The position numbers and the translations under genes were made by a program. This document shows positions 715 to 58,865 of a stretch of 64,000 nucleotides of DNA, one piece after another (positions within the stretch are counted from its first letter, which is position 1; the number at the start of each line of letters is the position of its first letter). Under the pieces are notes generated by a model, which was not told the DNA's origin, did no database searches, and worked only from the letters and a program-made list of their open reading frames with translations. The stretch is from Stegostoma tigrinum (Eukaryota). The stretch spans positions 25,709,978-25,773,977 of the forward strand of contig NC_081374.1 of the NCBI RefSeq assembly GCF_030684315.1. Reading direction: 5' to 3'.

Positions 715-1220
715 TCTAGAATAGGCAAAATCATTTCAAAAAACGTGTTCTCCCAAATAGAAGGGAGATAGCCATTGTTTTTTTCTCTCCTTTCAGAGGA
801 TCGTGAGCCTCGTCCCAGAGAACGCGGATGTTTGTTTTTAAGACAGAGGTAGATAGATTATTGATGAACAAGGGGCACAAAGGTTATAGAAAAAGGCTGG
901 GCTGGGGGACAGGGAACTGGAGTTAACAGGTGTGGAGCTGGAGGAACACAGCAGGCCAGGCAGCATCACAGGAGCAGGAAAGCGGACGGTTTCGGATCTG
1001 AATATTTTACACTTCTTCTGAAGAATGGTCCAGACCAGAAACCGTCAGCTTTCCTGCTCCTGTGATGCTGTCTGGCCTGCTGTGTTCCTCCAGCTCCACA
1101 ACTTGTTATCTCAGACTCCAGCTTCGGCAGTTCCTACTACCTCTGAGGGAATTGGAGTTGATGCCTCATTCAAATCAGTGGGATTTTGCTGAATGGTCGA
1201 ACAGGCAGGCAGGCCTGAAC
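715..1220 (+). mobile_element. Old CR1-type LINE 3' fragment, interrupted by the PLE palindrome at 925-1145
   Basis: gaggtagatagattattgat...aaggttat and ttgctgaatgg...gcctgaacagcctact resemble the CR1 3' end at 37088-37455. Confidence 0.5.
925..1145. mobile_element. Palindromic PLE-tail mini-insertion with hammerhead-like core
   Basis: Inverted arms ~925-1000 and ~1017-1145; core CTGAAGA..GAAACCGTC; TSD AGGGAA(C/T)TGGAGTT at 911-924 and 1146-1159. Confidence 0.85.
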
Positions 1221-8261: not shown

Positions 8262-9876
8262 TACCTTAGGATGTGCTGCCTTGGATAAAGTCCAATGAAA
8301 TCAGGAATCCACCAAGTGTCAACTTGGATGGGATTGGAACATACATAGCCAAAAGTGCAATCCAAGGTTTCATTTGTGGAGTGCATGTCAATTCAATATG
8401 TGCCCTGCTCAGAGAGACTAAATGTTCACTCAAATTGTATGAATTCCATTCTTATACAATGTTTGTGAAGTTTGATTAGAAATCCACTTTGTTGCGCAAA
8501 CAACTGTGACAGCACTTCCCAAGCTACAGAAGACATTTTCAAGGACGGTTGAAATTATTCCTAGGATCTGAAGCTTAACCAGTATTTTAGCTTCATGTTG
8601 TTGTTGTTGACTTCTGCTGTACTTCTGGTGAATAAAGTTTGATGGTTTTGATTTGCAATGAGTTGACAGAACACTATAAAATGCACACAAAACAATTAGT
8701 AGCTTGAGCAATGGAGAGTTGAGTCCAGATTGCAGCTTTGACTAGTTGTTGTGCCTCAGGCAAATTTTGTCTGTTCCCAGATAGAACCATAGATGCAGCC
8801 TACCATAACAGCACAGCACTTCTATCAGGAATGATGCTGAGTAGACTCCTCTTATATTGCTGTGTAGGATGAGGAAATTAACTTGTTTTTCATAGTGCTG
8901 AAGTTGAACAGGGTGAAGGAGAATGATTTTGGTTAGGGCCAGCAGGAGAGAAGTGTTGTCTCATTCTATTAAAGATGTTTCTTTTGTGGTTGTGAGTATG
9001 AATTAGAATTAATGCTATCACAGAAGTAGGCGAGGGTGATTATGCCCTTCTTGATGAAATTTTAAAAAAGGGTGGAAAATAAACAAGGAGATGCTTTTAA
9101 AATGGAAAAAACACAATCTGCAAATGAGCTGCTTTACAATGGGATTGAAAACTAAAGAAAAATGAAAACATTAAATGACTCATACACAGGACGTATTCCG
9201 TTCTTAGGTTACCTAAGGATATTACTATTACTTACTGCAACCATCTTCCCAAAGCACTGTACTGAATGAATAGAAAAAAATATCTGTAATTCACCATAAT
9301 GGGTCTGTTCATAATCTATGATTTTCTACTCACTCTAAAGGGTGAAATTTAAACTTAATTAAAAATATGTGATATGGTGTAGGCAATGAAGTGGTAATTT
9401 TGAAGTTCACTGGCAAGTTGTTACTTGTCAGGAGTAAATTGCACTTGTAGGGAAAATACCAGAGAATAAAAGCTTTAGTATTCTGCAGAACATTTCACTT
9501 TGAAAATGTAAAGCAATTTGCAAGCAAAGTGAATACAAATATTTTGGCATGAGAAACTTTAAATCCTTAAAGAAGCTCAGTGAAATTTTCACATTTGGAA
9601 GAAATAGTTACAAATTAATGTAGCAAAGTGATGTGACTTGAATTTCTTTAATCAATATTTTCATTGCACCTACAACAGTTCTAAAGCAAAAAGGTTTACA
9701 ATGAGGAAGGAATGAATATAGAATGCTCCATATGCAGATTTCTCACTGAAGAAAATATCTGGCTCCGAAAGAGCTTCTGAGAAAACTCAGTTGAAATCTC
9801 ATTTTGATTTCACTCCATTAATTGTTGTTGTAAATTATAATTATTGCTGATATCAACATAGTGAGCCAATAAAAAT

Positions 9877-10130
9877 GGCAGCACGGTGGCTCAGTGGTTA
9901 GCACTGCTGCCTCACAGCAACAGGCGCCCATGTTCAGTTCCACTCATGCTAAATTGTCCAAAGTGTTCAGGGATGTGTAGAATAAGTGAGGTTATTAGTG
10001 GCATTGGAGGGGGGTGGGGGGGGGAGGGGCGCGGTGGTGGCGGTGGGTTGGGCCTGGATGGGATGCTCTGAGGGTCAGTGTGGGCTTGTTGGGTCAAATG
10101 GCCTGTTTCCGTACTGTAGGGATTTTATGA
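9877..10130 (+). mobile_element. HE1-type tRNA-derived SINE, internally deleted
   Basis: Head GGCAGCACGGTGGCTCAGTGGTTAGCACTGCTGCCTCACAGC and tail ggcctgtttcc..ctgtagggatt; homologous to 27097-27409. Confidence 0.8.
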
Positions 10131-11252: not shown

Positions 11253-11908
11253 TAGAGTCGTAGAGTTACACAGCACAGAAACAGACCCCACGGTCAAACT
11301 CATCTGCATTGACAATTCTAATTATACTGATCTAGTCCCATTTGCTAGCATTTGGCCCATATCCCTCTAAATCTGAACAAACCTTGTATCCATCCAGATA
11401 CCTTCTCAATGTTGTAATTGTACTCGTTGCCTCCTCCTCGACTTCTGGCAGCTGGTACCATACACACACCGTCCTCTGCATGGAAAAAATTGCCCCTCAG
11501 ATCCCTTTGTTAAAATCTTTCCCCCTCACCTTAACTGTACACCCTTTAGTTTTCAACTCCCCTACCCTAGAAAAAAGACCCTGCCCCCCATGATTTTATA
11601 AACCTCTTTTAGGTCACCCCTCAGCCTCTGATGGTCCAGGGCAAAATAACCCCAGCCTATTCAGCCCCTGCCTATCTCCCAACCCTCTTACCCTGGCAAC
11701 ATCCTTGTAAATCCTTTTTGAGCCCTTTCAAGTTTAACAACATCCTTCCTACAACAGGAAAGCCAGAATTGAATGCAGTATTCTAAAATTGGTTTTACCA
11801 GTATCTTGTACAACTGTAACATGATGGTCCAACCCAACTCCTATACTCCGTGCACCGACCAATAAAGGTAAGCATGCCAAACACCTTATTTACTACCCCG
11901 CCTACCTG
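11253..11908 (-). mobile_element. CR1/HER1-type LINE 3' fragment
   Basis: catttggcccatatccctctaaa...aggtcacccctcagcctc...cctggcaacatccttgtaaatc pattern. Confidence 0.8.
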
Positions 11909-11934
11909 ATTCTAGGTATTGTAAATGAATCTTT

Positions 11935-12545
11935 TCCCATTTTCCAGTATTGGCCCATATCCTGCTAAATCCTTCCAGTTCATGTACCCGTCCAGATGTC
12001 TTTTAAATGTTGTAATTGTATCTGCCTCCATCACTTTCCATACATGCACCACCTCCAGTGTCAAAACATTGCCTTTCAAGTCCCTTTTATATCTTTCCCA
12101 TCTCACCTTAAACCTATGCAGTCTGGTTTTGGACTCCCCTACTCTGGGGAAAAGTTCTTGGCTGTTCACCCTATCCATGCCCCTCGTGATTTTATAAACT
12201 TCTAAAAGGTCACCACTTAGCCTCCGGTGCTCCAGGTTTAAAAATGCCCCAACCTATTCAGCCTCTCCCTTCAGCTCAAACCCTCTATTTCTGGCAGACT
12301 TAATTTTTTTTCGAACCCTTTCAAGCTTCACAAAATCTCTCCTAAAACTGGGAGATAAGAACTGAATGTAATATTCCAAAATTTGCCTCTCCAATGTCCT
12401 GTAAAGTTGCAACATCACCTCCCAACTCCTATACTCAAAGCAATGACCAATAGAGGCGATTATATTCTGTCTGCCTGCGACTCCACTTACAAGGAGCTAT
12501 GAACTTTCACTCAAAGATCCTTTCGTTCAGCAACACTCTCCAGGA
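11935..12545 (-). mobile_element. CR1/HER1-type LINE 3' fragment (second adjacent copy)
   Basis: Minus-strand ORF MDRVNSQELFPRVGESKTRLHRFKVRWERYKRDLKGN...FKRHLDGYM is a CR1 ORF2 C-terminus. Confidence 0.85.
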
Positions 12546-13742: not shown

Positions 13743-13974
13743 GAACAAAAATGGAAGTTGCTGGAGAAGCCCAGCAGATCTGGCAGCATTTGTGAAGAAA
13801 AAATCAGTAATGTTTCAAGTTTGGTGACCCTTCCTAAGGGCCTGAAGGTCTGAGGAAGGGCCACTGGACCCGAAACATTAACTCTGATTTTTCTTCATAG
13901 ATGCTGCCAGTTTTTCCAGCAACTTCTATTTTTGTTCCTGATTTACTGCATCCGCCGTTCTCTTGGTTTTTATT
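13743..13974. mobile_element. Palindromic PLE-tail mini-insertion (older subfamily)
   Basis: Inverted arms meet at cccttcct...CTGAGGAAGGGCCACTGGACCCGAAACATT; flanking direct repeat TTTCATTTG at 13734-13742 and 13979-13987. Confidence 0.8.
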
Positions 13975-14811: not shown

Positions 14812-15005
14812 AGCAAAATACTGCATATACTGGAAATCTGAAACAAATGAAGAAAACTCGTATCATATGTGGAGAGAGAAGTAGATAAACATTTCAAATT
14901 CAGTTTGACTTCAGAACTGAAATATCAGCTATAGAGAAGAGTCATATTGAATTCAATGTTAATTCGGATTTCTCTCCACAGATGCTGCCAGTTTAGTTGA
15001 TTATT
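14812..15005. mobile_element. Degenerate palindromic PLE-tail insertion
   Basis: aaaagcaaaatactgc...tgtggagagagaa versus ttctctccacagatgctgccag; arms meet near gacttcag/gaagagtc. Confidence 0.55.
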
Positions 15006-15154: not shown

Positions 15155-15325
15155 TCATAGTCATACAGCATGTAAACCCTTCAGTCCAATCTGTCCATGC
15201 TGACCGTAATCCCAAACTAAACTAATCCCAACTGCCTGCATTTGGCCCATATTCCTCCAAATCTTCCCGATTCATATACTTATCCAAATGTCTTAAACAT
15301 TGTCACTGTATCTGCATTTTGCACT
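15155..15325 (-). mobile_element. CR1 3'-terminal fragment
   Basis: acccttcagtccaa..gtccatgctgacc...cctgcatttggcccatattcctccaaa. Confidence 0.7.
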
Positions 15326-16408
15326 TTGACTATTTTTATTTGAACTTTAAGAATTATGAGCCAGAATAACTAAATGAAATCAATTATTCCTGCATAATGA
15401 GGGCTAATGCCTTAACTTTTTTAGAGGCCAATTCCAGTTGGGATCCTGCCCGCACAATGTGTATGAAGGAAATTCGATATGTATTCTCTTGCACATGATC
15501 GCTACCTAATCTGTTCTCAGTTTATTCTTTGTCTTCAACTTTATGTCAGCACTTCGCTGCTCTCACCCATACTTTTAAGATTCTTGATATATACAAATGA
15601 ATTTCTTAACTGTAAGCCTTTTCAGAGTTCTATTAAACACAGCATTCATCTGGTCCAAGTAAAGTTTAAGATGATGAGAAAATGTGTCCCAGGTTCTGTG
15701 CTTCATGCATTTTTTTTTTTTTCTGTTGCTTTTTCTTCTGTTGTTTGAATTCTTCCATTCCTTGCTCATCCTTCTATTTCTAGCAAAAGTTTCAACTGTG
15801 CAATCAGGTACTTTCTCCTCAACACTAATCAAATAGTTAGCACTTGAACAGCTTTAGAAGCAAGGTGGGCACATCTCTTAAACATTCCTAGTCCGAACGA
15901 AAACTTCTTCAATGTGAAATATTAATCTCTTTCTCTCTTGTTCTTTCACTCTCTGTCACCCTCTCCACTGCTGCCAAACCTGCTGACTATTTTGAAGTCT
16001 TGTGCTTTGATTTCATATTTCCTACTCTAACACTTTCTTCTCTTAATTAGTAATACCTGCAGAATTGTGATGTTCATCGTGGCCACTTGGATCATTATAT
16101 GCCCTATTGAAAATTCACAGCAGCATTTTTGGATGCCGGTATAGGCAGTTTCAGTTTGCCACATCTCTGCACTAAATCCATAATGAATGGAGAAGCTTTC
16201 CTGAACGTGTAGGTAATGTGCCAGTCTGCACTAAATCATGCAATTGAGTGTCAGATTTCCTGGCAGCTCTCATGATTCATGTATTTTAAGGTAATGTACC
16301 GTGCTGGTTTTACTAATGCAGATGGAACAGTTGGCTGCTAAGTGACTATAGGTATCTCTTTGGTCCTAGTACATGATCTGATTGATACAGCGCATGCAGC
16401 TATGAACA

Positions 16409-16564
16409 CAAAAGCTGACGTTTCGGGCCTAGACCCTTCATGAAGGGTCTAGGCCCGAAACGTCAGCTTTTGTGCTCCTGAGATGCTGCTTGGCCTGCTG
16501 TGTTCATCCAGCCTCACATTTTATTATCTTGGAATTCTCCAGCATCTGCAGTTCCCATTATCTC
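16409..16564. mobile_element. Young palindromic PLE-tail mini-insertion
   Basis: Perfect 68-bp palindrome at 16407-16474 centred in the hammerhead core (CCCTTCA|TGAAGGG); tail essentially identical to 26728-26851; TSD TGCAGCTATGAACA at 16395-16408 and 16565-16578. Confidence 0.95.
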
Positions 16565-19297
16565 TGCAGCTATGAACATATCTGAATGCACAATTGGCAT
16601 TCTGAAACACATTTATAGAAAGCAACAGAATTCTAATGTAGTAACAACAAAAGTTAGAAATGGGCTACCATATTGCACATTTATTTTGTCATTAAATAAA
16701 CTTTTTTTTTATATGGACAGTAATAGCCAACAGTGGAACTAATGAGAGAATAATGTTGGCTAATTTGTACTGTAATCTCTAATGGATGACCCATTCAAAT
16801 AAATTGGTGTTCCACCAAGCAGTGCTGGCTCTGCATGCACAATGAAATGACCCACTATGAAAATTCCAATACAGGCCTGTCCTGTAACTGAGATGTCTTG
16901 ACTACTCATCCTTTTTAGCTGTTCTAATCTTTATTTAATAGACTCTAATTTGTGCCTTCTGTCTTACTGCTCCACCTGAGTATTTCCTCTGTGAAGTGGC
17001 TGGTTGTTGGGTGTCAACACACTCTTCTGATAGCATACCACTATATCTCTAAGATGTATTTTCAATTTGCTCATGGGATATGGGCATCACTAGCTAGGCC
17101 AGCACTTATCGACCATCCCTAATTGCAATTTTCATAGGTGTTTCAAAAGTATGTAACAAGTGCTAAAAGTTGTGTACATGACAGTTGCGGTCAGAATTGA
17201 ATGGATTCAGCCCTATGCAGCCATAATTTACTAATGATCCATTTCACAATGGTTATTATATTCTCCACTAAAGGCATTGCAACTTGCCGGAGCAACACCC
17301 AAACAGCACCCCGCGCCCCCACAAACACCAGCCAACCTTGGCTAATTCTTCATGGTCTAGAGAACCAACTCTAGAGTTGAAGAAATGACATACTGTATTT
17401 TGGTGATGTCACACTAATGATTGAATAACTGGTAAAATACTCAGTGTGTGAAATATGTATAAGGCTTGCAACAGTGCTATGCTTCTCGGGGTGAGATAAT
17501 GCATATTGATGTCAGGTATGAGTCCAGATTGTTAGAGGTTGTTAGTGAACAATGGAGTTATAGTAAACCTCGCACTGTATAGCCAGTGACCTAAAAAGTA
17601 GGCTATGGCAATTGAAGGTGGCATTTGTTGACCTTGGTCACTTATGAATCATTAAGTTTCTTGCAGCATTGTGTCTATGTCCTTTTGTCTAAACTGTAGG
17701 TCTTTACCAAGGTGGGAATCAGTTCTCACTTCTTGCCATGTAACCTTATCAGTGACCTGCTCCCCTGTGGGTTCAGAACATCTCTTCACTTTTCCACTGC
17801 CCCTAGCAAGACTTTGTAGTACACAATACTTTAATTATCTGCTCTCTCCCATGAACAGCCATTCTTTACTCATTTTTTTGTCTTGTCAAATACTGCTCCA
17901 GAGCTGGATTTTCTAGTGATCACTCTGTTCCAGTTACAATTCACCTCCTCTTTAAACAGTGTAGGCTAGCTTTTAGCAATGCAAGTTACTAATGACTGTG
18001 GGCTTCCTGGTGCTGTGTACAGTTAGTGAACAGCATGGCTGGTGTTGACAGCACACATTATTGTAATGAGGAGGCAACATAGAATTGATGTACTGCCTGC
18101 ATTATGCTGAATGGTTAGTGGTTAACTGCATATTCTGACTTCCCAATACTTATTTTTAGGGGTTATCTAATTCAAAAATGCCGTCTACTTACTCCATGTT
18201 TGACGGTGAGTAGTTGCATAGAACTATTTGGATACCAAATGTGGATCAAATCTGAGATTGACGGCTGAGGAAAGACAATGAGCTGGTGCTCAACCTTTCG
18301 ATTACTGATCGTTCATTGCCATTTTGAGTAGACTTCTCTTGTATTTTGTCATTTTAAGGGGTCACCATTATGTGAATTACTGCCTAAATCCTTTGGGCTA
18401 AATATAAATATACTGATGACTGTGAGAGGTTTGACGAGTGGAACAAGATGTTGTCAGATCCTGGCCTTTATTGTATCTTTTGACGTTTTTTTAAAGACTA
18501 CATATAGAAGCAGAACAGCGTAGACCAACATTAAACTTCTACATCTGAAAAGACTTTTTGTAGCCATGGTAGTGGTGTTAATTGGCACAAAGTAGCAGTT
18601 TGTTTGAGTGAAGAGCGAGAACATATAATTTGGAAAAGAATGATTTAAAAAGCATGAGTGATCACTAGAAAATCATGCTCATTGTAGCAACCTTGATGAT
18701 TGATTGAATTAACAGTATTGCAAAGATATAGTCAGTCATATTAATTCAGAAACCAGAGATACAGTTCTGTGCTCCCTACTTCCCAAGCCTGTTCTAGTCA
18801 ACCAACTATTCAATAGCTACTCAACTTGAATTTATCTAACACAACCACAAGGCTATCTGTTTATCACACACTGATATTGCTTCCTTCTTTTACCTCAGAA
18901 TATCTACTCGCATGTTCCTGCTCTTAGAACTAAAACAGACATGAGCAACAGTGTTATCCTATCATCTCTCAAACTCGGGACACGATTTGGTTCTAATGAG
19001 GGTGACCATATCTATCCATTTATAGCCATGTTGTTCTGGCTGGCCACAGAATCTATGTTGCATGATGTGACCTTCTATAGCCAGTTGTAGAAGACTGTGG
19101 CAACTTAGCACTTACAGAATTCAGCTAATAAAACACAATGGTAGCAGTTTTCTTTAAAAAAAAACACTTGTATTCCTGAGCAAAGCAACATTCTGTAGAT
19201 TGATGTCACTTTTGAAGTAAATTATAAATACAATTTTGGGCATGCAGCAATGAAAGATACACTTGCACAGAGCTCCAGCTTTACGAACTGGCCTCCA

Positions 19298-19500
19298 ATC
19301 ATAGAATCATAGAGTCCCTGCAGTGTGGAAGCAGGCCATTGGGCCCATCGAGTCTACACCAACTCTCTGAAGAGCATCCTGCCAACACCCGGCCCCCTAC
19401 CCTATCCCTATAACCTGCATTTCCCACGGCTAATCCACCTAGCCTGCACATCCTTAGACAATTTTTAGAATGGCCAATCTACCTAACTTGTACATCTTTA
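19298..19500 (-). mobile_element. HE1-like SINE 3' fragment
   Basis: atcatagaatcatagagtccctgcagtgtggaagcaggcc...ggctaatccacctagcctgcacatc. Confidence 0.7.
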
Positions 19501-19939
19501 CATAATTTGACTGAGTATTTAGCAATATGTGACCTTTTCCAGGAGACATAATGAACTTAGTGTACAGGCAAATCTGGGTAAAGCCAGGTTTTAGAAGCAC
19601 TGAAATTCCCAGTCGTCTCCTGCTGTTTTCCAAAAGTTGGTAGTTCATTTTACTGTTTGGAAGATATTATTGTCAGCATTCTTTGAACACGTGAAAACAG
19701 TAAGAGAATACACGTCTGATCACTTGCAAAAATGCATGCAGAGACCTATGCCCTGTTAGACAGAGTATAGACACAACATTGGTGTTCCCATTATACTTCT
19801 CATCAATGCTGCTAATCTCTGACTAGTTTTGTGGACTAGCTGTACCCTTATACCCTAAACATCATAAATGACAGCAGCCCAGTTTCCAGGTAGTAATGAC
19901 ATTCAGAGCTTTATTATGCATATAAAAGGATGCATAATT

Positions 19940-20122
19940 CACAGACATAAGGAGAGACAACTTCTTATTTATAGCTTGAGGGTAACCCCTCAATAAATGT
20001 GGGCAGGGTGAGGATGTATTACTTCATGAACTATTGCAGCTAGTATGGGGATTGAACCCATATTGCAGGCTTTTTTTCTACTTCACACTCTTGTCACTTA
20101 GTGAACTGAGTTAACCAACACC
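19940..20122 (-). mobile_element. Old tRNA-derived SINE (family also at 52930, 53280 and 60410)
   Basis: B-box ggattgaaccc and head ctgagttaaccaacacc on the minus strand; body tgagggtaacccctca. Confidence 0.5.
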
Positions 20123-20852
20123 ACCCTTTCACCTCTAATTCTTTTTATATGGCTAAGTCAGAAAGCAAAGTTCATCTTGTCTGGTACAATATGCTGATCC
20201 AGGTTAGTATAATTATAATATATTGTTTTTATGTTAGATGGCTGATGTGTCTAATTGCTAAAAATGTTGTAGTTGCAACCTCTAGATTTTCTTTTGCTGC
20301 AACTTTCAAGATTGCCTCAGTACCTATGTAACCTGAGGTTTCTAATATTTTCATAATCAGTAAGTGGAAAAAATGAATGTCATTTTAAAACATGGTGCAT
20401 CCCTAATATATTTTCGAATTATCAGCATTAAATTGTTGTAGACAATTGTGCCAATCATTAAATTTATTTTTAAAACTGATTATTATTTTAATATGATGGA
20501 AAATGGTTGATAATAATGCTGCTTCATGTCTTATCATGTCTAAATGCATTAACAAGACTGTTTAAAGAGTCAGGGCCATTTTTCAGGATCTGGTTTGAAA
20601 AATGAAACATAGAATTGGCCAAGTGCAATGAAGGGAAACAAAAGTACTCCTTAAATTCAAATTATATTGTTGAGGATTATTTGCTCTAAAGAATGAATGC
20701 ATCAGCCCATGTCAGCAGCTTATAATTCAATGGGCATGAAAGGAGAAGGCAGCCAATAGCTCTGAAAACATAGAAGATGTGCTGTTTATATCGATTTTAT
20801 AGCACACAGGCCACTCAAACTAACCGGTCAATGCTGGTGTTTATACTTTAAA

Positions 20853-21200
20853 GATTTATCTGGATGGTGCCAGGATTGGAGGGCTTGAGTTATAAGGAGA
20901 GGTTGGATAAGCTAAGGTGTTTTTCACTGGAGTGTGGGAGGTTGAGGGGTGACTTTTTATAGAGGTTTATATAATTGAGGGGCATAGAAAAGGTGACTGG
21001 TAGGTGTCCTTTTCTTAGGGTGGGGGTTTTCAAGACTAGTGATAATTTTAATGTGAGTAGAGAAATACTTTAAAGGTAGAAGGGCAATTATTTTTACAGA
21101 GTAGAATTGTGTGTGATATGAACTTCCAGGAAAGGATGCAGGCACAGCTATAATGTTTAAACGACATTTGGATAAGTACATGATTAAGAAATGTTTGCCA
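20853..21200 (+). mobile_element. CR1 3' fragment
   Basis: gagttataaggagaggttggataagcta...gaggggtgac..atagaggtttat...tttaaacgacatttggataagtacatg. Confidence 0.8.
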
Positions 21201-21914
21201 GGTGCCCCTCACTTCATTACCTGCAGCAGCATTATCTTCAGTGCCTTTCTTCCTTAATTTCACTTGTGATATTCACCTTAATTATCTGATTGCTATCCTG
21301 CAAGCAAAGACCATTCTTCTTGAATTCTCTATTGAGCATATCAACGACTATTTTATAATTATGATTCTGAATTTTAGGCATCCCAACAATTGGGAAAAAT
21401 TTCTGCATTATCCTCTAAAACCTTTCATGAAAGTAAAGACATTTACAAAACAAATTGTATCAAAAGTGAAGAAACCTGGGGGGAAAGAAAAAAATATCTG
21501 AATGTGGAAGACCGAGAAACCACAAAAATCAAGAGGGTTGTTGTGTGCAGTAGGCATAAAATATAGAATATGCAGAACAATTAAAATAATCAAGAAACAT
21601 GAAAGTCTCTTTAATTGTCCTTTAATGAACCTTTTTGGCCACCACTATTATCTATGCAAAATATCTTCAATATTAATTGCTTTCACTGTTTTAGTTTTAA
21701 GACCTAACCAGAATACGAGTTTGTTTTTCTTTACTTTTGGACAAATAATGCTGAAGAAGGTGACCAATTTATTGAAATAATATAATCGCCTTTTATTAGA
21801 TGATCTTTTTCATCTAAAATGGAAACATGAATACACTTTTCTTTTTGTTCTTATTGAGATGAGTAACTTTTCATCTCTAAATGTCAAATGTTTATGAATG
21901 ACTTATGAAAGTCA

Positions 21915-22320
21915 ATTGTACAGCATGGATACAACCCTTTGGTCCACCTTGCCCATGCTGACCAAATATCCTAAATTTATTCAAGCCCCATTTGCCAGCA
22001 TTTGGCCCACATCCCTCTAAACGCTTCCTTTCATGTAGCCATCCAGATGCCTTTTTAAATGTAACTGTACCAGCCTCCACCACTTCCTCTGGTAGTTCAT
22101 TTCATACATGCACCACTCCTGCATGAATATGTTGCCTCCTAGATCCCTTTTAAACCAATGCCATCGAGCTTTGGACTCCTTGACCCTGGGAAGAAGACCT
22201 TGGCTGTTTATCCTCATGATTTTATAAACAACTATAAGGCCACCACTCAGCCTCGGACGCTGTAGGGAAAATAGCCCCCACCTATTCAGCATCTCCCTAT
22301 AGCTTAAACCCTGCATACCA
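21915..22320 (-). mobile_element. CR1 3' fragment
   Basis: Minus-strand ORF GLSYREMLNRWGLFSLQRPRLSGGLIVVYKIMR. Confidence 0.85.
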
Positions 22321-23424
22321 TGAAAAGTTAAAGAAGGAAACAATTGACAGTTGTGGTAACTTATCCTTAGGCTATCTACTTAAATGTCCATCTTCCCCTT
22401 GCATTCCTTCATTAATTTCAGAACTCCCTACTGCTTGACTCATTTGTACTTAATGGTTTTCAAGATGTCATCTTCGGTCAGTTATGCTGACCTTTTGTGA
22501 TGACATAACTGACTGCTTCCCTGATTCTGCACATTTATGACTGCTTGAGGCAAAATTCTCATGATGCCCTGATTGCTCTACACCCTACAGCATTATGCAT
22601 CTCTGATTACTCCAAATCCCTCCTCTGTGATTCCTTGTATGTATTCTTCAAGTAGGTTATGTCAAACATGACTGCCTGGGACAATTTGTCCTTTCTATTT
22701 TCCACAGCCCAGTGTTTATATATTTGGATTACATTGAAATAAGTAGAATGCTCAATACTTCCCATATGTTACAGCACGCTTTGAAAACTGAGTCCAGCAA
22801 AGTCTACATTTGAATACAGCTTAGATTGCAGCATGAGAATTCTCCACCATGAACAAAACTCTCTTCAAGCAATGCACATGAACAAGGTCCTTTAACTTTC
22901 CGGTCATGAGGTTCACCCAATCATTTCCTGTCCAGCTCATAACCAGCTTGGTATTTGATATTGGTATAAATGATGCCATTTAATGGTTCCTGTACTACTT
23001 TCTCTTAGACATCATGATTCATCCTAACCTGTAAGTAGAACAGAATGAATATTATAGTGTGCATTTTTCCATTTTCTCACTTGCAACAGCATACTCATAT
23101 GTGATTTTCTAATCCATGCTCATGGCAGGCAATGTGACATTTAGAAAGCAGCATCTCAGGAGCACAAAAGCTGACGTTTTGGGCCTAGACCCTTCATCAG
23201 AGAGGGGGATGGGGAGAGGGAACTGGAATAAATAGGGAGAGAGGGGGAGGCAGACCGAAGATGGAGAGTAAAGAAGATAGGTGGAGAGAGTAGAGGTGGG
23301 GAGGTAGGGAGGGGATAGGTCAGTCCAGGGAAGACGGACAGGTCAAGGAGGTGGGATGAGGTTAGTAGGTAGCTGGGGGTGCGGCTTGGGGTGGGAGGAA
23401 GGGATGGGTGAGAGGAAGAACCGG

Positions 23425-24660
23425 TTAGGGAGGCAGAGACAGGTTGGACTGGTTTTGGGATGCAGTGGGTGGGGGGGAAGAGCTGGGCTGGTTGTGTGGT
23501 GCAGTCGGGGGAGGGGACGAACTAGGCTGGTTTAGGGATGCAGTCGGGGAAGGGGAGATTTTGAAACTGGTGAAGTCCACATTGATACCATATGGCTGCA
23601 GGGTTCCCAGGCAGAATATGAGTTGCTGTTCCTGCAACCTTCGGGTGGCATCATTGTGGCAGTGCAGGAGGCCCATGATGGACATGTCATCTAGAGAATG
23701 GGAGGGGGAGTGGAAATGGTTTGCGACTGGGAGGTGCAGTTGTTTGTTGCGAACTGAGCGGAGGTGTTCTGCAAAGCGGTCCCCAAGCCTCCGCTTGGTT
23801 TCCCCAATGTAGAGGAAGCCGCACCGGGTACAGTGGATGCAGTATACCACATTGGCAGATGTGCAGGTGAACCTCTGCTTAATGTGGAATGTCATTTTGG
23901 GGCCTGGGATAGGGGTGAGGGAGGAGGTGTGGGGACAAGTGTAGCATTTCCTACGGTTGCAGGGGAAGGTGCCGGGTGTGGTGGGGTTGGAGGGCAGTGT
24001 GGAGCGAACAAGGGAGTCACGGAGAGAGTGGTCTCTCCGGAAAGCAGACAGGGGAGGGGATGGAAAAATGTCTTGGGTGGTGGGGTCGGATTGTAAATGG
24101 CGGAAGTGTCGCAGGATGATGCGTTGTATCCGGAGGTTGGTAGGGTGGTGTGTGAGAACGAGGGAGATCCTCTTAGGGCGGTTGTGGCGGGGGCGGGGTT
24201 TGAGGGATGTGTTGCGGGAAATACGGGAGACGCGGTCAAGGGCGTTCTCGATCACTGTGGGGGGAAAGTTGCGGCCCTGAAAGAACTTGGACATCTGGGA
24301 TGTGCGGGAGTGGAATGTCTTATCGTGGGAGCAGATGCGGCGGAGGTGGAGGAATTGGGAATAAGGGATGGAATTTTTGCAGGAGGGTGGGTGGGAGGAG
24401 GTGTATTCAAGGTAGCTGTGGGAGTCGGTGGGCTTGAAATGGACATCAGTTACAAGCTGGTTGCCTGAGATGGAGACTGAGAGGTCCAGGAAGGTGAGGG
24501 ATGTGCTGCAGATGGCCCAGGTGAACTGAAGGTTGGGGTGGAAGGTGTTGGTGAAGTGGATGAACTGTTCGAGCTCCTCTGGGGAGCAAGAGGCGGCGCC
24601 GATACAGTCATCAATGTACCGGAGGAAGAGGTGGGGTTTGGGGCCTGTGTAGGTGCGGAA
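23425..24660 (-). pseudogene. 5'-truncated PLE ORF in the left arm: RT C-terminal half, Zn linker and GIY-YIG endonuclease
   Basis: FRTYTGPKPHLFLRYIDD...CNRRKCYTC...NVVYCIHCTRCGFLYIGETKRRLGDRFAEH; frame open but no native start. Confidence 0.92.
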
Positions 24661-26499
24661 CCCTACCGCCTCCTCAATCATGACCCCACACCCGAGCACC
24701 AAACCATCATCTCCAACACCATTCACGACCTCATCACCTCAGGGGACCTCCCACCCACAGCCTCCAACCTCATTGTTCCCCAACCCCGCACGGCCCGTTT
24801 CTATCTCCTTCCCAAAATCCACAAACCTGTCTGCCCTGGTCGACCCATCGTCTCAGCCTGCTCCTGCCCCACCGAACTCATCTCCACCTATCCGGACTCC
24901 ATTTTCTCCCCTTTGGTCCAGGAACTCCCCACCTACGTCCGTGACACTACCCACGCCCTCCACCTCCTCCAGGGCTTCCAATTCCCTGGCCCCCAACACC
25001 TCATATTCACCATGGATGTCCAGTCCCTGTACACCTGCATTCCGCATGGAGATGGCCTCAAGGCCCTCCGCTTCTTCCTGTCCCGCAGGCCCGACCAGTC
25101 CCCCTCCACCGACACTCTCATCCGCCTAGCTGAACTCGTCCTCACACTCAACAACGTCTCTTTTGACTCCTCCCACTTCCTACAGACTAAGGGGGTGGCC
25201 ATGGGCACCCGCATGGGCCCCAGCTATGCCTGCCTCTTTGTAGGTTATGTGGAACAGTCCCTCTTCCGCACCTACACAGGCCCCAAACCCCACCTTTTCC
25301 TCCGGTACATTGATGATTGTATCGGCGCCGCCTCTTGCTCCCCAGAGGAGCTTGAACAGTTCATCCACTTCACCAACACCTTCCACCCCAACCTTCAGTT
25401 CACCTGGGCCATCTGCAGCACATCCGTCACCTTCCTGGACCTCTCAGTCTCCATCTCAGGCAACCAGCTTGTAACTGATGTCCATTTCAAGCCCACCGAC
25501 TCCCACAGCTACCTAGAATACACCTCCTCCCACCCACCCTCCTGCAAAAATTCCATCCGCTATTCCCAATTCCTCCGCCTCCACCGCATCTGCTCCCACG
25601 ATAAGACATTCCACTCCCGCACATCCCAGATGTCCAAGTTCTTTCAGGACCGCAACTTTCCCCCCACAGTGATCGAGAATGCCCTTGACCGCGTCTCCCG
25701 TATTTCCCGCAACACATCCCTCACACCCCGCCTCCGCCACAACCGCCCTAAGAGGATCCCCCTTGTTCTCACACACCACCCTACCAACCTCCGGATACAA
25801 CGCATCATCCTGCGACACTTCCGCCATTTACAATCCGACCCCACCACCCAAGACATTTTTCCATCCCCTCCCCTGTCTGCTTTCCGGAGAGACCACTCTC
25901 TCCGTGACTCCCTTGTTCGCTCCACACTCCCCTCCAACCCCACCACACCCGGCACCTTCCCCTGCAACCGCAGGAAATGCTACACTTGTCCCCACACCTC
26001 CTCCCTCACCCCTATCCCAGGCCCCAAAATGACATTCCACATTAAGCAGAGGTTCACCTGCACATCTGCCAATGTGTTATACTGCATCCACTGTACCCGG
26101 TGCGGCTTCCTCTACATTGGGCAAACCAAGCGGAGGCTTGGGGACCGCTTTGCAGAACACCTCCGCTCAGTTCGCAACAAACAACTGCACCTCCCAGTCG
26201 CAAACCATTTCCACTCCCCCTCCCATTCTCTAGATGACATGTCCATCATGGGCCTCCTGCACTGCCACAATGATGCCACCCGAAGGTTGCAGGAACAGCA
26301 ACCCATATTCCGCCTGGGAACCCTGCAGCCATATGGTATCAATGTGGACTTCACCAGTTTCAAAATCTCCCCTTCCCCTACTGCATCCCTAAACCAGCCT
26401 AGTTCGTCCCCTCCCCCGACTGCACCACACAACCAGCCCAGCTCTTCCCCCCCACCCACTGCATCCCAAAACCAGTCCAACCTGTCTCTGCCTCCCTAA
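24661..26499 (+). CDS. 5'-truncated but uninterrupted PLE polyprotein: reverse transcriptase, Cys-rich linker and GIY-YIG endonuclease (Neptune clade)
   Basis: RT motifs FYLLPKIHK, GRPIVS, FTMDVQSLYT, QTKGVAMGTRMGPSYA, RYIDD; linker CNRRKCYTC; endonuclease VLYCIHCTRCGFLYIGQT..R..EH..VANHF; residues upstream of 24661 are antisense left arm. Confidence 0.93.
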   Translation, partial: PYRLLNHDPTPEHQTIISNTIHDLITSGDLPPTASNLIVPQPRTARFYLLPKIHKPVCPGRPIVSACSCPTELISTYPDSIFSPLVQELPTYVRDTTHALHLLQGFQFPGPQHLIFTMDVQSLYTCIPHGDGLKALRFFLSRRPDQSPSTDTLIRLAELVLTLNNVSFDSSHFLQTKGVAMGTRMGPSYACLFVGYVEQSLFRTYTGPKPHLFLRYIDDCIGAASCSPEELEQFIHFTNTFHPNLQFTWAICSTSVTFLDLSVSISGNQLVTDVHFKPTDSHSYLEYTSSHPPSCKNSIRYSQFLRLHRICSHDKTFHSRTSQMSKFFQDRNFPPTVIENALDRVSRISRNTSLTPRLRHNRPKRIPLVLTHHPTNLRIQRIILRHFRHLQSDPTTQDIFPSPPLSAFRRDHSLRDSLVRSTLPSNPTTPGTFPCNRRKCYTCPHTSSLTPIPGPKMTFHIKQRFTCTSANVLYCIHCTRCGFLYIGQTKRRLGDRFAEHLRSVRNKQLHLPVANHFHSPSHSLDDMSIMGLLHCHNDATRRLQEQQPIFRLGTLQPYGINVDFTSFKISPSPTASLNQPSSSPPPTAPHNQPSSSPPPTASQNQSNLSLPP

Positions 26500-26723
26500 C
26501 CGGTTCTTCCTCTCACCCATCCCTTCCTCCCACCCCAAGCCGCACCCCCAGCTACCTACTAACCTCATCCCACCTCCTTGACCTGTCCGTCTTCCCTGGA
26601 CTGACCTATCCCCTCCCTACCTCCCCACCTACACTCTCTCCACCTATATTCTTTACTCCCCATCTTCGGTCTGCCTCCCCCTCTCTCCCTATTTATTCCA
26701 GTTCCCTCTCCCCATCCCCCTCT

Positions 26724-26751
26724 CTGATGAAGGGTCTAGGCCCGAAACGTC
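26724..26751 (+). ncRNA. Minimal type I hammerhead-like motif in the PLE 3' UTR
   Basis: CTGATGA-A-GGGTCTAGGCCC-GAAAC-GTC: core intact, loop-less ACGT helix III; helix I only about 2 bp by eye. The left-arm copy (23173-23200) has GAAA mutated to AAAA. Confidence 0.65.
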
Positions 26752-27096
26752 AGCTTTTGTGCTCCTGAGATGCTGCTTGGCCTGCTGTGTTCATCCAGCC
26801 TCACATTTTATTATCTTGGAATTCTCCAGCATCTGCAGTTCCCATTATATCTGTGACATTTAGAAATATTATTTTTACTCATAAGTACATTTCTCTGAAT
26901 TTCTTAAAATTTTTTTTTCAATTTTTGTGCAGATGTTGTGCAATATGTGGAGCAAATATACAACTCATGACGAATATTTGCCATGAGACTTTACGTGCAT
27001 TTGCTTCTGTAATTCTCCAAATTCAACAGGGCCTACATTTTTTGAAGAACTTTCTCTTAAATATATGGAAATTGCTTTTAAAAAAAGCCCCTATTA

Positions 27097-27409
27097 TAGA
27101 TTAGATTCCCTACAGTGTGGAAACAGGCCCTTCGGCCCAACAAGTCCACACTGCCACTTGAAGCATCCCACCCAGACCCATCCCCCGATAACCCACACAC
27201 CCCTGAACACTACGGGCAATTTAGCATGGCCAATCCACCTAGCCTGCACATCTTTGGACTGTGGGAGGAAACCGGCGCACCCGGAGGAAACCCACACAGA
27301 CACGGGGAGAATGTGCAAACTCCACACACAGTTACCCGAGGCTGGAATCGAACCCGGGTCCCTGGTGCTGTGAGGCTGCAGTGCTAACCACTGAGCCACC
27401 GTGCCACCC
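27097..27409 (-). mobile_element. Full-length young HE1-type SINE
   Basis: tRNA head with A box (TGGCTCAGTGG) and B box (GGTTCGATTCC), central body, CR1-like tail ending (AATCT)n. Confidence 0.92.
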
Positions 27410-28169
27410 TGTTCCCCATCCACTATATATAACTGTTCCTTTTAGCAATAAATGCAAAATAGTTTACTGTATTGAAATTCAAATATCAGAACATGGTTGC
27501 AAATCCCAACCATTTAGGGTTAAATTTTACTCGGAATGTGGGGTCTGATGTTTGGTGCAAAAGTCGGGGGAGTGCACTTGGCTGACCTGCCAGCAACCGT
27601 ATACCAGACATTGGACCTTAAGGTGAAATTTGGAGATATTTGAATTCCAACCCAAGAAGAAGTCCTCACATCAAACACTGCCAAGCATTCAAATGGCTGA
27701 GAAATACCTTGACCCAGTAATAGCACCAGGAGCCAGGGAATTGTGTAGAAAATTCAGGAGTGGATGGGATATGGGTTGGGGGTGGAACATTCAGGAAGCC
27801 ATGCGAATCGGGAAGAAGAAACACCTGTATGAACACCCGAGAACTGCCCAACAGATTCTCATCACTATACATGCCACAGGCAATTGGTATTGGTCTCCTT
27901 CATCATAAGAAGTCATCGTTGTTGTGAGGAAGCCCTTAAGTATACAGTTAAAGGCCTCAATTGGTCATGGGCAAACAAGCAAATCACCTGATGGCCCCGC
28001 TCACTTCCCTCAGTCAGTTTGTGTAAAGTATGCACAAGTCATGAGAATCCGATGGCTAGATGGACACATGCTGCTACCAAGGGATGCAATTTTTTTACTC
28101 CACCCTCTTCTACCTGTTATCCCATTTCCATAATTTTAGCCAGGTTCTGTACAGTACTCCTCCAAACAC

Positions 28170-33789: not shown

Positions 33790-34420
33790 TCATACAGAGA
33801 TGGCTGGGTGAGGTTGTAGATGTGCTCACCAAGCTGGTGGGTTTGGTTGCAAATGCTTCATCACTCTGCTAGGTAACATCATCAGTGTGCCTCAGGTGAA
33901 GTGTCAGTGTTCTATTCCACTCATTATTTATATGCCTCAATTTTTGCTGAACTGTTTGGCATCACATCCTCTTCTGTTTCTCAGTAGTTTGCACACAGGG
34001 TCTAATTCAGTGTGTTTGCTGATGGAATTCCAGGCCTCCAGGAACTCGCTGGTGTGTCTCTGTTTGGCTTGTGCAATTATGGATTTGTTGTCCCAGTCAA
34101 ATTCGTGTCCCTCGTTGTACATGTGTAGTGAGACAAGTGAGAATTGGTTGCGTCTTTTGGTGGCTAGTTGGTATTCGTGTATCTGCATTGTCAGTTTTAT
34201 TTCAGTTTGGCCTATGTAGCGTTTCCTATCCCTGCATTGTATTTTGTATATAATGTCGATTTTGCTGTTTTGGTTATGGGATCCTTCACGTTCATCGCTT
34301 CGTGTGATATAGCTCATTGCAGTTACTTTGACATTGTTCCAGAGCCTTTGAGGAGGATCAGATGTTGCTCTCACTCCTTTGAAATCCTAAACTGTTTTAC
34401 ACACAAGAAAATACAATCAA
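33790..34420 (-). mobile_element. Degenerate Penelope/Poseidon-type PLE 3' fragment (GIY-YIG and 3' UTR with decayed hammerhead)
   Basis: IIYKIQCRDRKRYIGQT..L...IHEYQLA...SLVSLH....GHEFDWDN..II...EFLEAW; no Cys linker visible; CTGATGA-TGTTACC...GAAG at 33851-33885. Confidence 0.85.
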
Positions 34421-37578: not shown

Positions 37579-37815
37579 GGGCAATAGAATAAAAGTGTCC
37601 TGAATGTGGATGGCAGCTTATTCACTCATTGCTGGGGATCTTTTACGGGTTGCCATTGCGGGGTTTCCCCTGCCGTCTTCAATGTATAAACCACAGCTTG
37701 TTTTTGCTCCAGCTGCTGTTGCCAGGATAGTACTCTGGATGTTGGCCCCTTTTTCCAAATGTATTGTTGCCAGGTTGAAATTTTAGATGCCTGGCAGTCT
37801 GGAATGGAATTGTAT

Positions 37816-37935
37816 CAGTGATAATGGGAACTGCAGACGCTGGAGAATCCAAGATAACAAAGTGTGGAGCTGGATGAACACAGCAGGCCATGCTGCTTGG
37901 CCTGCTGTGTTCATCCAGCTCCACACTTTGTTATC
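37816..37935. mobile_element. Palindromic PLE-tail mini-insertion lacking the hammerhead
   Basis: agataacaaagtgtggagctggatgaacacagcaggcca / tggcctgctgtgttcatccagctccacactttgttatct; imperfect flanking repeat TCTGGAATG(G/A)AAT at 37798-37810 and 37934-37946. Confidence 0.88.
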
Positions 37936-38066
37936 TGGAATGAAATGGCCAGTTTGGCCAATGTTATTAAGCGCAGATCGGTTTTGGGGTTCATTTATGG
38001 GAGTTCCCTGCTTCTGGGGGCAGGGGAATTGTGTGGAGGGGGAGTCTGCCTGGGAGTCCTGGGTGT

Positions 38067-38965: not shown

Positions 38966-39760
38966 TTTTAGAATCCTGAATATCTGCAAAAGACCATTTC
39001 TCCCCTACAGTATCTTGGATTGTTGAATATTGCTTGACCTTTCTCAGTAGCAGATTTCATGATCTCTGCACTGCAGCTTCAACTTGTGTCAGCAAATTTT
39101 TATTCTCAATCCACCTGTACACTTACACTGAAACATGTAAACACTTTACTTACATAAATGTATTAGTTAGGACTTTCATATTGACTGCAGAGATTGTATT
39201 ATTGATGAAACTAACATTTCCTTGGCTTTGCTTTTTGATGATTACTTTGGGATTGGCATGATCTTTTGCCGAGGGTTTCTTCTTTGGAAGGTAAAGAAGC
39301 CAAATAAGCTGTTTGGACTTGTCTCTTGAGTCACCTCAACATGTTACATCTGATGTGAATGTGCCATAGCTGTTTATTCACCAAGCTGAGTACTCTGAGT
39401 TACATCAGAAAGAGATTAGTCAATTAGCACAAATGGGGTATGCCGTTCATTGCCTGTTTTCCTTGCAAACCTTTGTTGCAGACTGATCACCTTTTTAGTG
39501 TTCTTGGCAGCCTAAAACAACTCATGCCAATTATAGTTACAGGCTTCCTTCTTATTGACATAATTAAACATGTTTCTTTTTGGCCAACGAGAGCATCTAT
39601 AGATTTGTTTTTACTTGGATACTGCCATGAGTTTTGGGAGCCCTAGGAAATACACTCTCAGCTGGACGTTGACTGTTTTTCCCTTGGCCCGCTGCTCTGT
39701 GACTGATGGTTCCTTGGCTGTCTGCTACTTCATATATCATCCAACTGCTTCCACCATTTA

Positions 39761-40074
39761 AGATTAGATTTCCTACAGTGTGGAAACAGGCCCTTCGGCC
39801 CAACAAGTCCACACTGCCCATTGAAGCATCCCACCCAGACCCATCCCCCTATAACCCTCACACCCCTGAACACTACAGGCAATTTAGCATGGCCAATCCA
39901 CCTAACCTGCACATCTTTGGACTGTGGGAGGAAACCGGAGCACCCGGAGGAAACCCACACAGACACGGGGAGAATGTGCAAACTCCACACAGACAGTTGC
40001 CCGAGGTGGGAATCAAACCCGGGTCCCTGGCGCTGTGAGGCTGCAGTGCTAACCACTGAGCCACCATGCTGCCC
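39761..40074 (-). mobile_element. Full-length young HE1-type SINE
   Basis: Nearly colinear with 27097-27409. Confidence 0.92.
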
Positions 40075-40149
40075 TTAAGAAGATTAAGTTCAAGATTTAT
40101 ATCATCTAAGCTGCAGTGAAAATTCTTAGTTGTGAACTATGTATAGGTT

Positions 40150-42539: not shown

Positions 42540-43792
42540 TGTGGTATCATAGTGTTCTAGCAAAAATGAAGTTGATGTGAAACTAGAATAATGCTCTCTG
42601 CTAGCAGGAGTCCGTACCTGGTGCAAAGGAAGACAGTTTTGTTGGTTGGAGGTCTGTCACCTTAGCTCCAGGACATCAATACAGGAGTTCCTTTGGAAAT
42701 AGCCTCAGATCAAGCACCTTCAGCTGCTTCATCAATGATCTCTCCATTGTAGAGTCAGAAGGGAGGCAGTTCAGTGCTGATTGCATAACATTCAGCACCA
42801 TTCACAACTTTTATACTGAAGCAGTCTAACTACACACAAAATATCCAGGCTTAAATAACAAGTGGTCAGTAACATTCACACCATACAAGTGCCAAGCAAT
42901 GACTATATCCATCAGGAGAGGATCTAACCATTGCCCCTTGACATTTAATGGCTTACTGTTGTTGAATCTCCACTATTAATATGCTGGATTTGCCATTGGC
43001 AGGAAACTGAGCGGGAGTAGCCATATGAATACTGGCTAGAAGAGCAGTTCTAAGGTTAGGAATCCTACAACTCCCCAGCGACTATCAGGAATGTGATGGA
43101 ATTCTCTCCAATTGCCTGAATGATTACAGCTCCACGAAAACTTAATTGTGACATTATCCAGAACAAAACAGCCCACTTGACTGAAACCACATTCACAAAT
43201 GTTCCTTCCCTCCTCTACTGACAGTCAGGAGCACCATTGTGCGCCATCTACAAAATATACTGCAGAAATTCATCAAAGCTTCTTAGGTAGCATTTTCCAA
43301 ACCCAAAACAAAGACAGAAATTGCTGGATAACCTCAACAGGTCTGGTAGTATCTGTGGAAAGAAACAGGGTTGAGTAACCCTTCCTCAGTTCTGAGGAAG
43401 GGTCACTCAACCTGAAATGTTAACTCTGATTTGTCTCCACGGATATTCCCAGACATGTTGCGTGTATTCAGCAACATCTGTTTTTGTTTCTGATTTACAG
43501 CATCCACAGTTATTTTGGTTTTCCAAACCCGTGAATATTGCCATCTAGAAGGACAAAGGTGACAGGTATATGGAAGCACCACTATCTGCAAGTTCCTCTC
43601 CAAGCTCGTCACTGTCCTGACCTGAAAATATAAATGCTGTTCTTCAGTGTTCCTGGGTCAAAGCCTTGGAGCTCCCTTCCTAATAGCATTGTGGCTAAAC
43701 ATACACCGGACAGACTACAGTATAACTATGGCAGCTAGAGATGGGCAATAAATGCTGGCCCAGCCAGTGATGTCCACATTCCTGAATGAAAC
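42540..43792 (+). mobile_element. Old L2/CR1-clade LINE 3' portion, interrupted by the PLE palindrome at 43305-43518
   Basis: RT-like caggagttcct...cagctgcttcatcaatgatctc...gctgattgc; tail gatgggcaataaatgctggcccagccagtgatgtccacattcc; same family as 57810-58580. Confidence 0.7.
43305..43518. mobile_element. Palindromic PLE-tail mini-insertion (older subfamily)
   Basis: Arms meet at CCCTTCCTCAG-TT-CTGAGGAAGGG; exact TSD TTTTCCAAACCC at 43293-43304 and 43519-43530; the host LINE reads through once it is removed. Confidence 0.88.
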
Positions 43793-49834: not shown

Positions 49835-50025
49835 AGATAGTAGGAACTGCTGATGCTGAAGAATCTGAGATAACAATGTGAACACAGCAGGCCAAGCATT
49901 ATCAGTGGAGAAGGGAAGATGATGTTTCGGGTCTGGTCCCTGAAGAAGGGTCCAGACCCGAAACGTCAGCTTTCCTGCTCCTCTGATGCTGCTTGGCCTG
50001 CTGTGTTTATCCAGCTCTATACCTT
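49835..50025. mobile_element. Palindromic PLE-tail mini-insertion with intact hammerhead-like core
   Basis: CTGAAGA-A-GGGTCCAGACCC-GAAAC-GTC at 49940-49967, at the arm junction; TSD GTTGCC(T/A)CTATTTAAG at 49819-49834 and 50026-50041. Confidence 0.88.
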
Positions 50026-50593
50026 GTTGCCACTATTTAAGTCAGATTTTAGTGGCAAGCAGTGTGAAATATGAGGAGGACAGAATAGACCTGGTAAAAG
50101 CAATTCTGAATTTTGTATATTTCTTCAGACAGCTAGGGTATGCTGTTGGAGAGTTATGCCTTTATGCATGAACCAGCATTGCACGTGCCCTTTGGATTTG
50201 TTTAAAATGTAAGAGTGAATATATGTAGAAAGTGGATAAACCCATTCAGTGTCAAGTCCATTGAGACTGACAGCAGGCAAGTCATGAGGACCAACTAGAT
50301 ATGCCAAAGAAAATTGCAAACAACATCTGTCAGAGGAACTGTCAAGCTGCTAGGACATTGAAAAATCCTGCCCTCCTTTGGAAAAGTGCAGTTTTAGCAA
50401 AATCATTGCTTGCTATTTCACTCAAACTCTTGTCGTAATCCTTAGGGTTCTCAGTACTTATTCAGTACTACATGACTAATTTCTGTCTCATCCATTTTCC
50501 TTGCAAGGTGTTTCCATTTCAGTTTGATTGCTTATTGCCTCCTTTAAAGTGGACCTGTGAATTCATTTGCTTGTATGCATAATACAGTGATAA

Positions 50594-58580: not shown

Positions 58581-58641
58581 TCTTGAAAGCTTGTTTTTAG
58601 CTGGAACTCTGAACAACTAAAGGCTTCTTTAAAAAATATGG

Positions 58642-58865
58642 GATAATAAAATGTGAGGCTGGATGAACACAGCAGGCCCAGCAGCATCTCAGGAGCACAA
58701 AAGCTGGCATTTCGGGCCTAGACCCTTCACCAGAGCCCTCTGATGAAGGGTTTAGGCCCGAAACGTCAGCTTTTGTCCACCTGAGATGCTGCTGGGCCTG
58801 CTGTGTTCATCCAGCCTCACATTTTATTATCTTGGATTCTCCAGCATCTGCAGTTCCCATTATCA
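58642..58865. mobile_element. Young palindromic PLE-tail mini-insertion with two hammerhead-like cores back to back
   Basis: Arms of about 94 bp meet at ~58735; core CTGATGA..GAAACGTC at 58740-58767; exact TSD CTTTAAAAAATATGG at 58627-58641 and 58866-58880. Confidence 0.95.

Follow-up and report, generated by a model that had tools for sequence, protein, structure and literature searches.

Junctions of two-armed copies of an endonuclease-bearing Penelope-like element suggest target-primed reverse transcription from both ends

Two-armed copies in the window and the element they belong to

The window, that is the whole 64-kb stretch of DNA analysed here, contains insertions in which an inverted and a direct arm of one element lie within a single target-site duplication (TSD). 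Element positions are numbered from the G at window position 16566, which is position 0. In the copy at 16395–16578 an exact 14-bp TSD (left copy at 16395–16408, plus strand, TGCAGCTATGAACA; right copy at 16565–16578, plus strand, TGCAGCTATGAACA) encloses a tail-less inverted arm (16407–16441, minus strand, element −126 to −92) and a tailed direct arm (16440–16566, plus strand, element −126 to 0). The end of the inverted arm lies at −92 (16407), its final 2 nt (CA) falling within the TSD; this is an early-stopping short arm of a minority class. The tailed end is at 0, where the first 2 nt of the right TSD (TG) are common to the element and give an overlap of 2 nt. In the direct arm the tail occupies about 16529–16566 and a hammerhead-like motif lies at 16440–16464, its first three core bases being absent.

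The 3.7-kb copy at 23133–26866 has exact 15-bp TSDs (23133–23147 and 26852–26866, plus strand) around a tail-less inverted arm at 23146–24660 (minus strand, element −1588 to −75) and a tailed direct arm at 24662–26853 (plus strand, element −2190 to 0). The direct arm carries a 5'-truncated ORF with RT plus, at its C terminus, a GIY-YIG domain (to 26499), followed by the 3' region, a hammerhead-like motif and the tail. The TSD overlaps the tailed end by 2 nt (TG, 26852) and the short end, which lies at −75, also by 2 nt (AA, 23146). The two-armed copy at 58627–58880 (plus strand) is flanked by exact 15-bp TSDs at 58627–58641 and 58866–58880; its inverted arm (58642–58735) stops at the modal short site, −38, and its tailed direct arm occupies 58738–58867. 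This copy has an overlap of 2 nt at its tailed end (CT, provided that position −3 carries A, a common variant) and none at the short end.

An older two-armed copy at 49819–50041 lies on the minus strand, with the tailed arm on its left side, and is flanked by a 16-bp repeat with one mismatch (49819–49834 and 50026–50041). Its short arm (..CCTTGTT) stops at about −41 at 50028, where it is overlapped by GTT, the first 3 nt of the repeat; this copy was too diverged for the junction statistics and was left out of them. Another older two-armed copy, of a sister subfamily, is found at 911–1159 (plus strand, 14-bp TSD with one mismatch), and a palindromic insertion of an older, different family at 43293–43530 (plus strand, 12-bp TSD TTTTCCAAACCC) has arms that are about 70% alike. 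We also observed a small two-armed copy at 37798–37942, the arms of which join at about −81, downstream of the hammerhead, and which has an exact repeat of only 9 bp (13 with one mismatch). The junctions named in the sequence-only reading were all present in the sequence, including a real 12-bp TSD at 43293–43530, and the tailed-end overlaps it gave (TG at 16565, TG at 26852 and CT at 58866) were confirmed. The 2–3-nt overlap that it gave for several ends of the other arm holds at 16407 (2), 23146 (2) and 50028 (3); at 58642 the overlap is 0.

The window also holds repeats of other kinds. A short frame with RYIGQT at 33812–34386 (minus strand) is likely a decayed GIY-YIG endonuclease from another PLE family, and an older family of hammerhead-like repeats, separate from the young one, is represented at 13846–13910, 14927–14991 and 43388–43452. 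A repeat of about 320 bp with a tRNA-like end, 90–95% alike between copies, occurs at 27088–27410, 39751–40075 and 9872–9942, and we take it to resemble the shark HE1 SINEs. Diverged repeat pieces at 11326–12456, 15216–15294 and 21981–22279 are probably LINE-like 3' fragments.

The two-armed copies are those of an abundant endonuclease-bearing (EN+) Penelope-like element (PLE), a new family member with an architecture that has already been published. The frame of the 3.7-kb copy matched RVT_1 (E 9e-5) and then GIY-YIG (E 0.002), both below the Pfam curated cut-offs. By eye, the window ORF contains VLYCIHCTRCGFLYIG, followed by AEH and NHF, which make up the CCHH motif, its cysteines lying between the two halves GIY and YIG, and the DKG motif appears as KPADKGG in locus L114; both motifs are defined for EN+ PLEs in PMC8557442. 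Also by eye, a linker zinc finger, CNRRKCYTC (CX4CxxC, the defined form being CX2-5CxxC), lies upstream of the GIY-YIG core. In the accessible text of PMC8557442 a CX2-5CxxC linker between RT and EN characterizes Neptune/Nematis-type PLEs and is missing from Penelope/Poseidon, and this zinc finger points to a Neptune or Nematis type for the present family. The EN+ PLE hallmarks of pLTR-forming tandems (such as the partial tandem in locus L111, with a unit of 3605 bp), an inverted 5'-truncated copy and a one-sided tail of 30–40 bp are present. Exact tail words gave 18,771 matches for one word and 12,539 for its variant, which puts the family at tens of thousands of young copies.

The hammerhead-like motif spans −129 to −102 and consists of CTGATGA, a 4-bp stem and GAAACGTC, parts such as those of the minimal hammerhead type in PMC4209133. 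An Rfam scan of window positions 16000–28000 returned four chance-level matches, none of them a hammerhead, and the computed fold of the motif differs from the active one (z 0.31). The RNA of the start-site region described below folded no better than shuffles (z 0.31), and this folding therefore provided no structural basis for the two sites.

Positions of the arm ends

All source loci lie within the initial 75 Mb of a single contig and were chosen by exact young-family words. Insertions were called from 210 loci and the window with a variant-aware end-caller that recognizes subfamily variants, for example at −54 and −4; 25 read-through loci (L091–L115), 25 element chains at locus edges and pieces of less than 88% identity were left out of calling. 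This yielded 285 insertions, namely 165 two-armed, 119 one-armed and one that was neither. The statistics set of 154 copies comprises 131 two-armed copies with an exact TSD of at least 12 bp and 23 from a centre-picked sample of 50 copies, which had been selected by their centre, blind to the outer ends. Excluded for want of an exact 12-bp TSD were 34 of the 165 two-armed copies; 26 excluded copies had a TSD of 8–11 bp, and 21 of these 26 reach 12–16 bp across one mismatch. Inner junctions were counted in 119 simple two-piece copies, the 12 complex copies among the 131 being omitted.

The arms end at two preferred internal sites of the element about 37 nt apart, giving a bimodal distribution. 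Long-arm ends lay at −12 or beyond in 153 of the 154 copies, with the first templated base between −8 and +5 in 150, while the short arm ended between −46 and −28 in 133 copies, further upstream in 20 and at the long site in one. The first templated base of the short arm had a median of −39 (quartiles −42 and −38) and fell within −45 to −35 in 130 of 154 copies; the tail was 30–45 nt long in 128 of 154, with a median of 38. The sequence-only reading had placed the end of this arm at a variable internal point, and the larger sample does not agree: most short arms stop at another preferred site, near 38 nt upstream of the tailed end. About one short arm in eight begins further upstream, and two of the four junctions cited in that reading (16407 and 23146) are of this early-stopping minority.

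The 50 centre-picked copies gave 35 with a modal short and a long arm, seven with an early short and a long arm and none with two long arms. Eight were without a long arm (five early/short, one short/short, one early/early and one early/mid). A TSD of at least 8 bp was missing from 11 of the 50, and consequently some arm ends in this sample may be miscalled. Rare insertions tailed on both sides, L033:6622-7985 and L068:6075-7964 (the latter with a 14-bp TSD), are exceptions to the long-plus-short rule. Within a copy, the positions of the two ends were uncorrelated, as were the two overlaps with the TSD. In a separate observation on the 119 simple copies, the 5' ends of both arms cluster at about −135 to −118, just upstream of the hammerhead core, and a smaller cluster at −101 to −84 adjoins the predicted cut after −102.

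The tailed end had been read as the family terminus and as the RNA's 3' end. This is not supported by the sequence around position 0: 754 exact copies extend beyond it by 11 nt or more, and five of the 20 read-through loci fetched go on for 1.4 kb into the RT region, several others continuing for 114–170 nt. In the L111 tandem the first ATG of the ORF follows position 0 by 38 nt, and none of the 92 tailed ends listed showed an A-rich or poly(A) tail or other end mark beyond that position. Since element sequence continues past position 0 into the ORF, position 0 is not established as an RNA 3' end.

Target nicks and junction overlaps

TSD length varied little, with 13–16 bp in 136 of the 154 copies (mean 14.65, SD 1.3). 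Outside both TSD edges, at −8 to −2, there is a weak A-A-(A/C)-(C/A)-(A/C)-A-(A/G) bias in mirror image, with A at −7 in 89 of 154 and 102 of 154 copies at the two edges. The narrow TSD length and the mirror-image motif favour nicks that are coupled, at a constrained spacing, over the two independent nicks previously proposed, and we infer two equivalent endonuclease sites that cut at a constrained distance. GIY-YIG homing endonucleases typically leave a 2-nt overhang. By a simple geometric argument, the putative 3' stagger of about 14 nt would correspond roughly to a cut across the minor groove plus one helical turn. For GIY-YIG homing endonucleases, nicking is described as staggered and sequential (PMC3161791).

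Overlap between the arms and the TSD was compared with three controls, junctions with unmatched bases being scored as zero in the means. The mean overlap (n = 154) was 1.71 nt for tailed ends and 1.49 nt for short ends. Permuted real targets gave 0.94 and 0.84, respectively, the observed values being reached in 0 of 1000 permutations; random sites, for the first 131 copies, gave 0.80 and 0.76 (reached in 0 of 2000), and 659 synthetic unrelated insertions passed through the same caller gave 0.76 and 0.83. Microhomology is thus above chance at both ends, although weaker in the 23 new copies alone (38 of 1000 and 17 of 1000 permutations). Overlaps of at least 2 nt were present at 74 of 154 tailed and 68 of 154 short junctions, compared with about 20% in the synthetic set, and the two ends did not differ (paired Wilcoxon p = 0.14). 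The overlap at the short arm, where the sequence-only reading had placed a second priming by base pairing, is above chance (1.49 versus 0.84), but such overlap is not confined to that end, given the 1.71 nt at the tailed one.

Zero overlap was found at 25 of 154 junctions at each end, and unmatched bases lay between arm and TSD at 18 long and 24 short junctions of 154, compared with 4% in the synthetic set. These junctions argue against a strict requirement for pairing. For overlaps of 2–3 nt, a flank profile trained on the 50 zero-overlap junctions scored highest when the nick lay on the outer TSD edge or close to it, suggesting that the shared bases are mostly on the primer side; for overlaps of 4–5 nt its peak lay 0–2 nt inside the TSD edge. 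Information at the TSD edges was 1.36 bits (outer) versus 0.86 bits (inner) overall, and 1.09 versus 1.26 bits for overlaps of at least 2 nt. Neither this comparison nor the slope of TSD length on total overlap (0.17 ± 0.06 in the real and 0.26 in the synthetic copies) discriminates where the shared bases belong. The short-end overlap could stem from end joining instead of priming.

Models of integration and known systems

From these junctions, it is probable that the two-armed copies arise by two-ended target-primed reverse transcription, with both nicked target strands priming on element RNA, at two internal sites. A pair of RT-endonuclease molecules would nick opposite strands about 14 bp apart and leave two 3' overhangs, one of which would prime near −2 and the other near −39. 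Measured from the predicted hammerhead cut, the two sites lie 64 and 100 nt downstream. The exact register at each end may be set by 1–4 terminal bases pairing with the RNA. Both cDNAs would then extend toward the RNA 5' end, halt at unrelated points and be joined head to head, often via a few shared bases, and fill-in of the overhangs would produce the TSD. With 119 of the 285 insertions one-armed, a second priming seems either not to be required or to be lost in many cases.

That both target strands appear to prime cDNA agrees with the sequence-only reading, the model of which corresponds to the L1 type of twin priming: the first strand would start at the RNA 3' end, and an independent second nick would anneal at a variable internal site. 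The two primings and the above-chance overlap of the short arm are supported, the 20 of 154 short ends that lie dispersed above the mode, on its upstream side, would suit it, and the RNA might be processed or end at position 0. However, the short end keeps largely to one site (133 of 154), the element continues through position 0 into the ORF, the tailed end lies inside the tandem unit, and the 92 listed tailed ends have no poly(A) or end mark after that position. The arms also overlap in the template, whereas L1 pieces are separated by a deletion (PMC2837659), the TSD length is narrow with symmetric flanks, and the early short ends show no more overlap (1.47, n = 17) than the modal ones (1.52, n = 113). 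We consider this explanation very improbable. Only slightly less so, and still improbable, is a fold-back or self-priming origin, in which one cDNA (or antisense RNA) folds and copies itself into an inverted arm; the tail would come from resolution of the intermediate by the endonuclease, and microhomology would serve to join the short end. Fold-back has been proposed for PLE inverted repeats (PMC3846280), and endonuclease resolution has been put forward for the tail (PMC8557442). A fold-back origin would fit the 56 of 119 copies in which the arm 5' ends are within 10 nt of each other, the 1–5 nt often shared at inner junctions, and the sharing of subfamily alleles between arms, which were discordant at 55 of 588 diagnostic non-CpG sites (9.4%), far below the 37% of random pairs. 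Against it, in 23 of the 119 copies the tail-less arm extends beyond the tailed one on the 5' side by more than 20 nt, with 20 to about 1700 nt of extra sequence while the tailed arm keeps its tail, and in 27 the tailed arm is the one that extends further. A sense-templated cDNA folding on itself cannot yield such reciprocal extra sequence, and where each arm has sequence absent from the other, a single cDNA of this kind is not the source. Discordance at diagnostic sites is also above that at invariant sites (389 of 21,122, 1.8%).

A variant of the two-ended reading, rather than an alternative to it, is that the two sites are primed on two RNA molecules, or on two units of a tandem RNA, one per subunit. 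The arms overlap in the template, the diagnostic discordance is about five times the background, and 13 of 33 long-overlap copies are discordant at two or more sites. On the other hand, the discordance is far under that of random pairing (37%, minimum 24.6%), nine of the 33 long-overlap copies have no discordant site, and the polymorphic sites could reflect hot spots of mutation or slips in the alignment. Two RNAs are possible but somewhat doubtful.

Returning to two-ended priming in general, we give an even chance to its being the routine mode of PLE integration, with a symmetric RT-endonuclease dimer that nicks both strands at a distance of about 14 bp, each subunit starting cDNA at one of two set RNA sites 37 nt apart with 1–4 nt of primer pairing. 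If true, this dimer two-site model would derive the tail, the inverted pLTR and the long TSD from a single step, in place of the self-priming and endonuclease-resolution accounts. The junction counts predict a nick spacing of 13–16 bp with 3' overhangs and a mirror-image flank motif, and, for each event, one long and one short start with brief primer pairing at both ends.

The architecture is a published one and not a new system; what is contributed here is a set of junction numbers bearing on the mechanism of PLE integration. No junction statistics for PLEs were found in the literature searched, although subscription papers and supplements may hold some, and no work on the PLE mechanism that joins Penelope with twin priming was found; the accessible part of 10.64898/2026.07.22.740005 added nothing on junctions. 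The closest published descriptions are of Pen2a_Av from Adineta vaga, an inverted copy with a one-sided 30–40-bp tail for which self-priming was favoured (PMC3846280), and of the general scheme in the legend of Fig. 2 of PMC8557442, where the PLE tail is ascribed to endonuclease resolution. As in these, an inverted 5'-truncated copy lies beside a direct copy with a 30–40-bp tail at one end, partial tandems form a pLTR, the TSD surrounds the whole unit and a hammerhead motif (here hammerhead-like) lies in the pLTR. Unlike in Adineta, the TSD is 13–16 bp rather than 8–10 bp (PMC3846280), and the readings set out in those two papers contrast with two primings, which the present junction counts favour.

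The twin and dual priming of L1, as defined in PMC2837659, resemble the present case in that both target 3' ends prime, inverted pieces lie in one TSD and the target junctions show microhomology. In L1, however, priming occurs first at the poly(A) end and then at an internal site that varies, a deletion lies between the pieces and the outcome is a minority one, whereas in the present family both start sites are internal and preferred, the arms overlap and two-armed copies make up 165 of 285 insertions. For Poseidon PAc of Anolis carolinensis, the protein cleaves and extends both strands in vitro and reverse transcription starts at two adjacent internal RNA sites bounding the tail; the same work states that later PLE integration steps were not validated (PMC11167929). 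Both elements have two adjacent start sites within the RNA, putative in the present family, that lie downstream of the hammerhead and bound the tail, and the cutting and extension of both target strands there, where a dimer is predicted, matches what the junctions suggest here. PAc differs in belonging to the Penelope/Poseidon clade, whereas the linker zinc finger here points to Neptune/Nematis, in having its start sites within the ORF while both lie upstream of the first ATG here, and in its 5'-ATT-3' preference. The 1–4-nt overlap here is above chance, whereas in the accessible text of PMC11167929 no homology to the cut DNA is reported.

Some shorter forms were also observed. Loci L099, L100, L102 and L104 hold internally deleted derivatives in which the leader, up to +114 to +170, is fused to the 3' region. 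At G000:C1:165409492-165411422, seven matches at a spacing of 313 bp form a short hammerhead-bearing tandem unit of a retrozyme-like kind.
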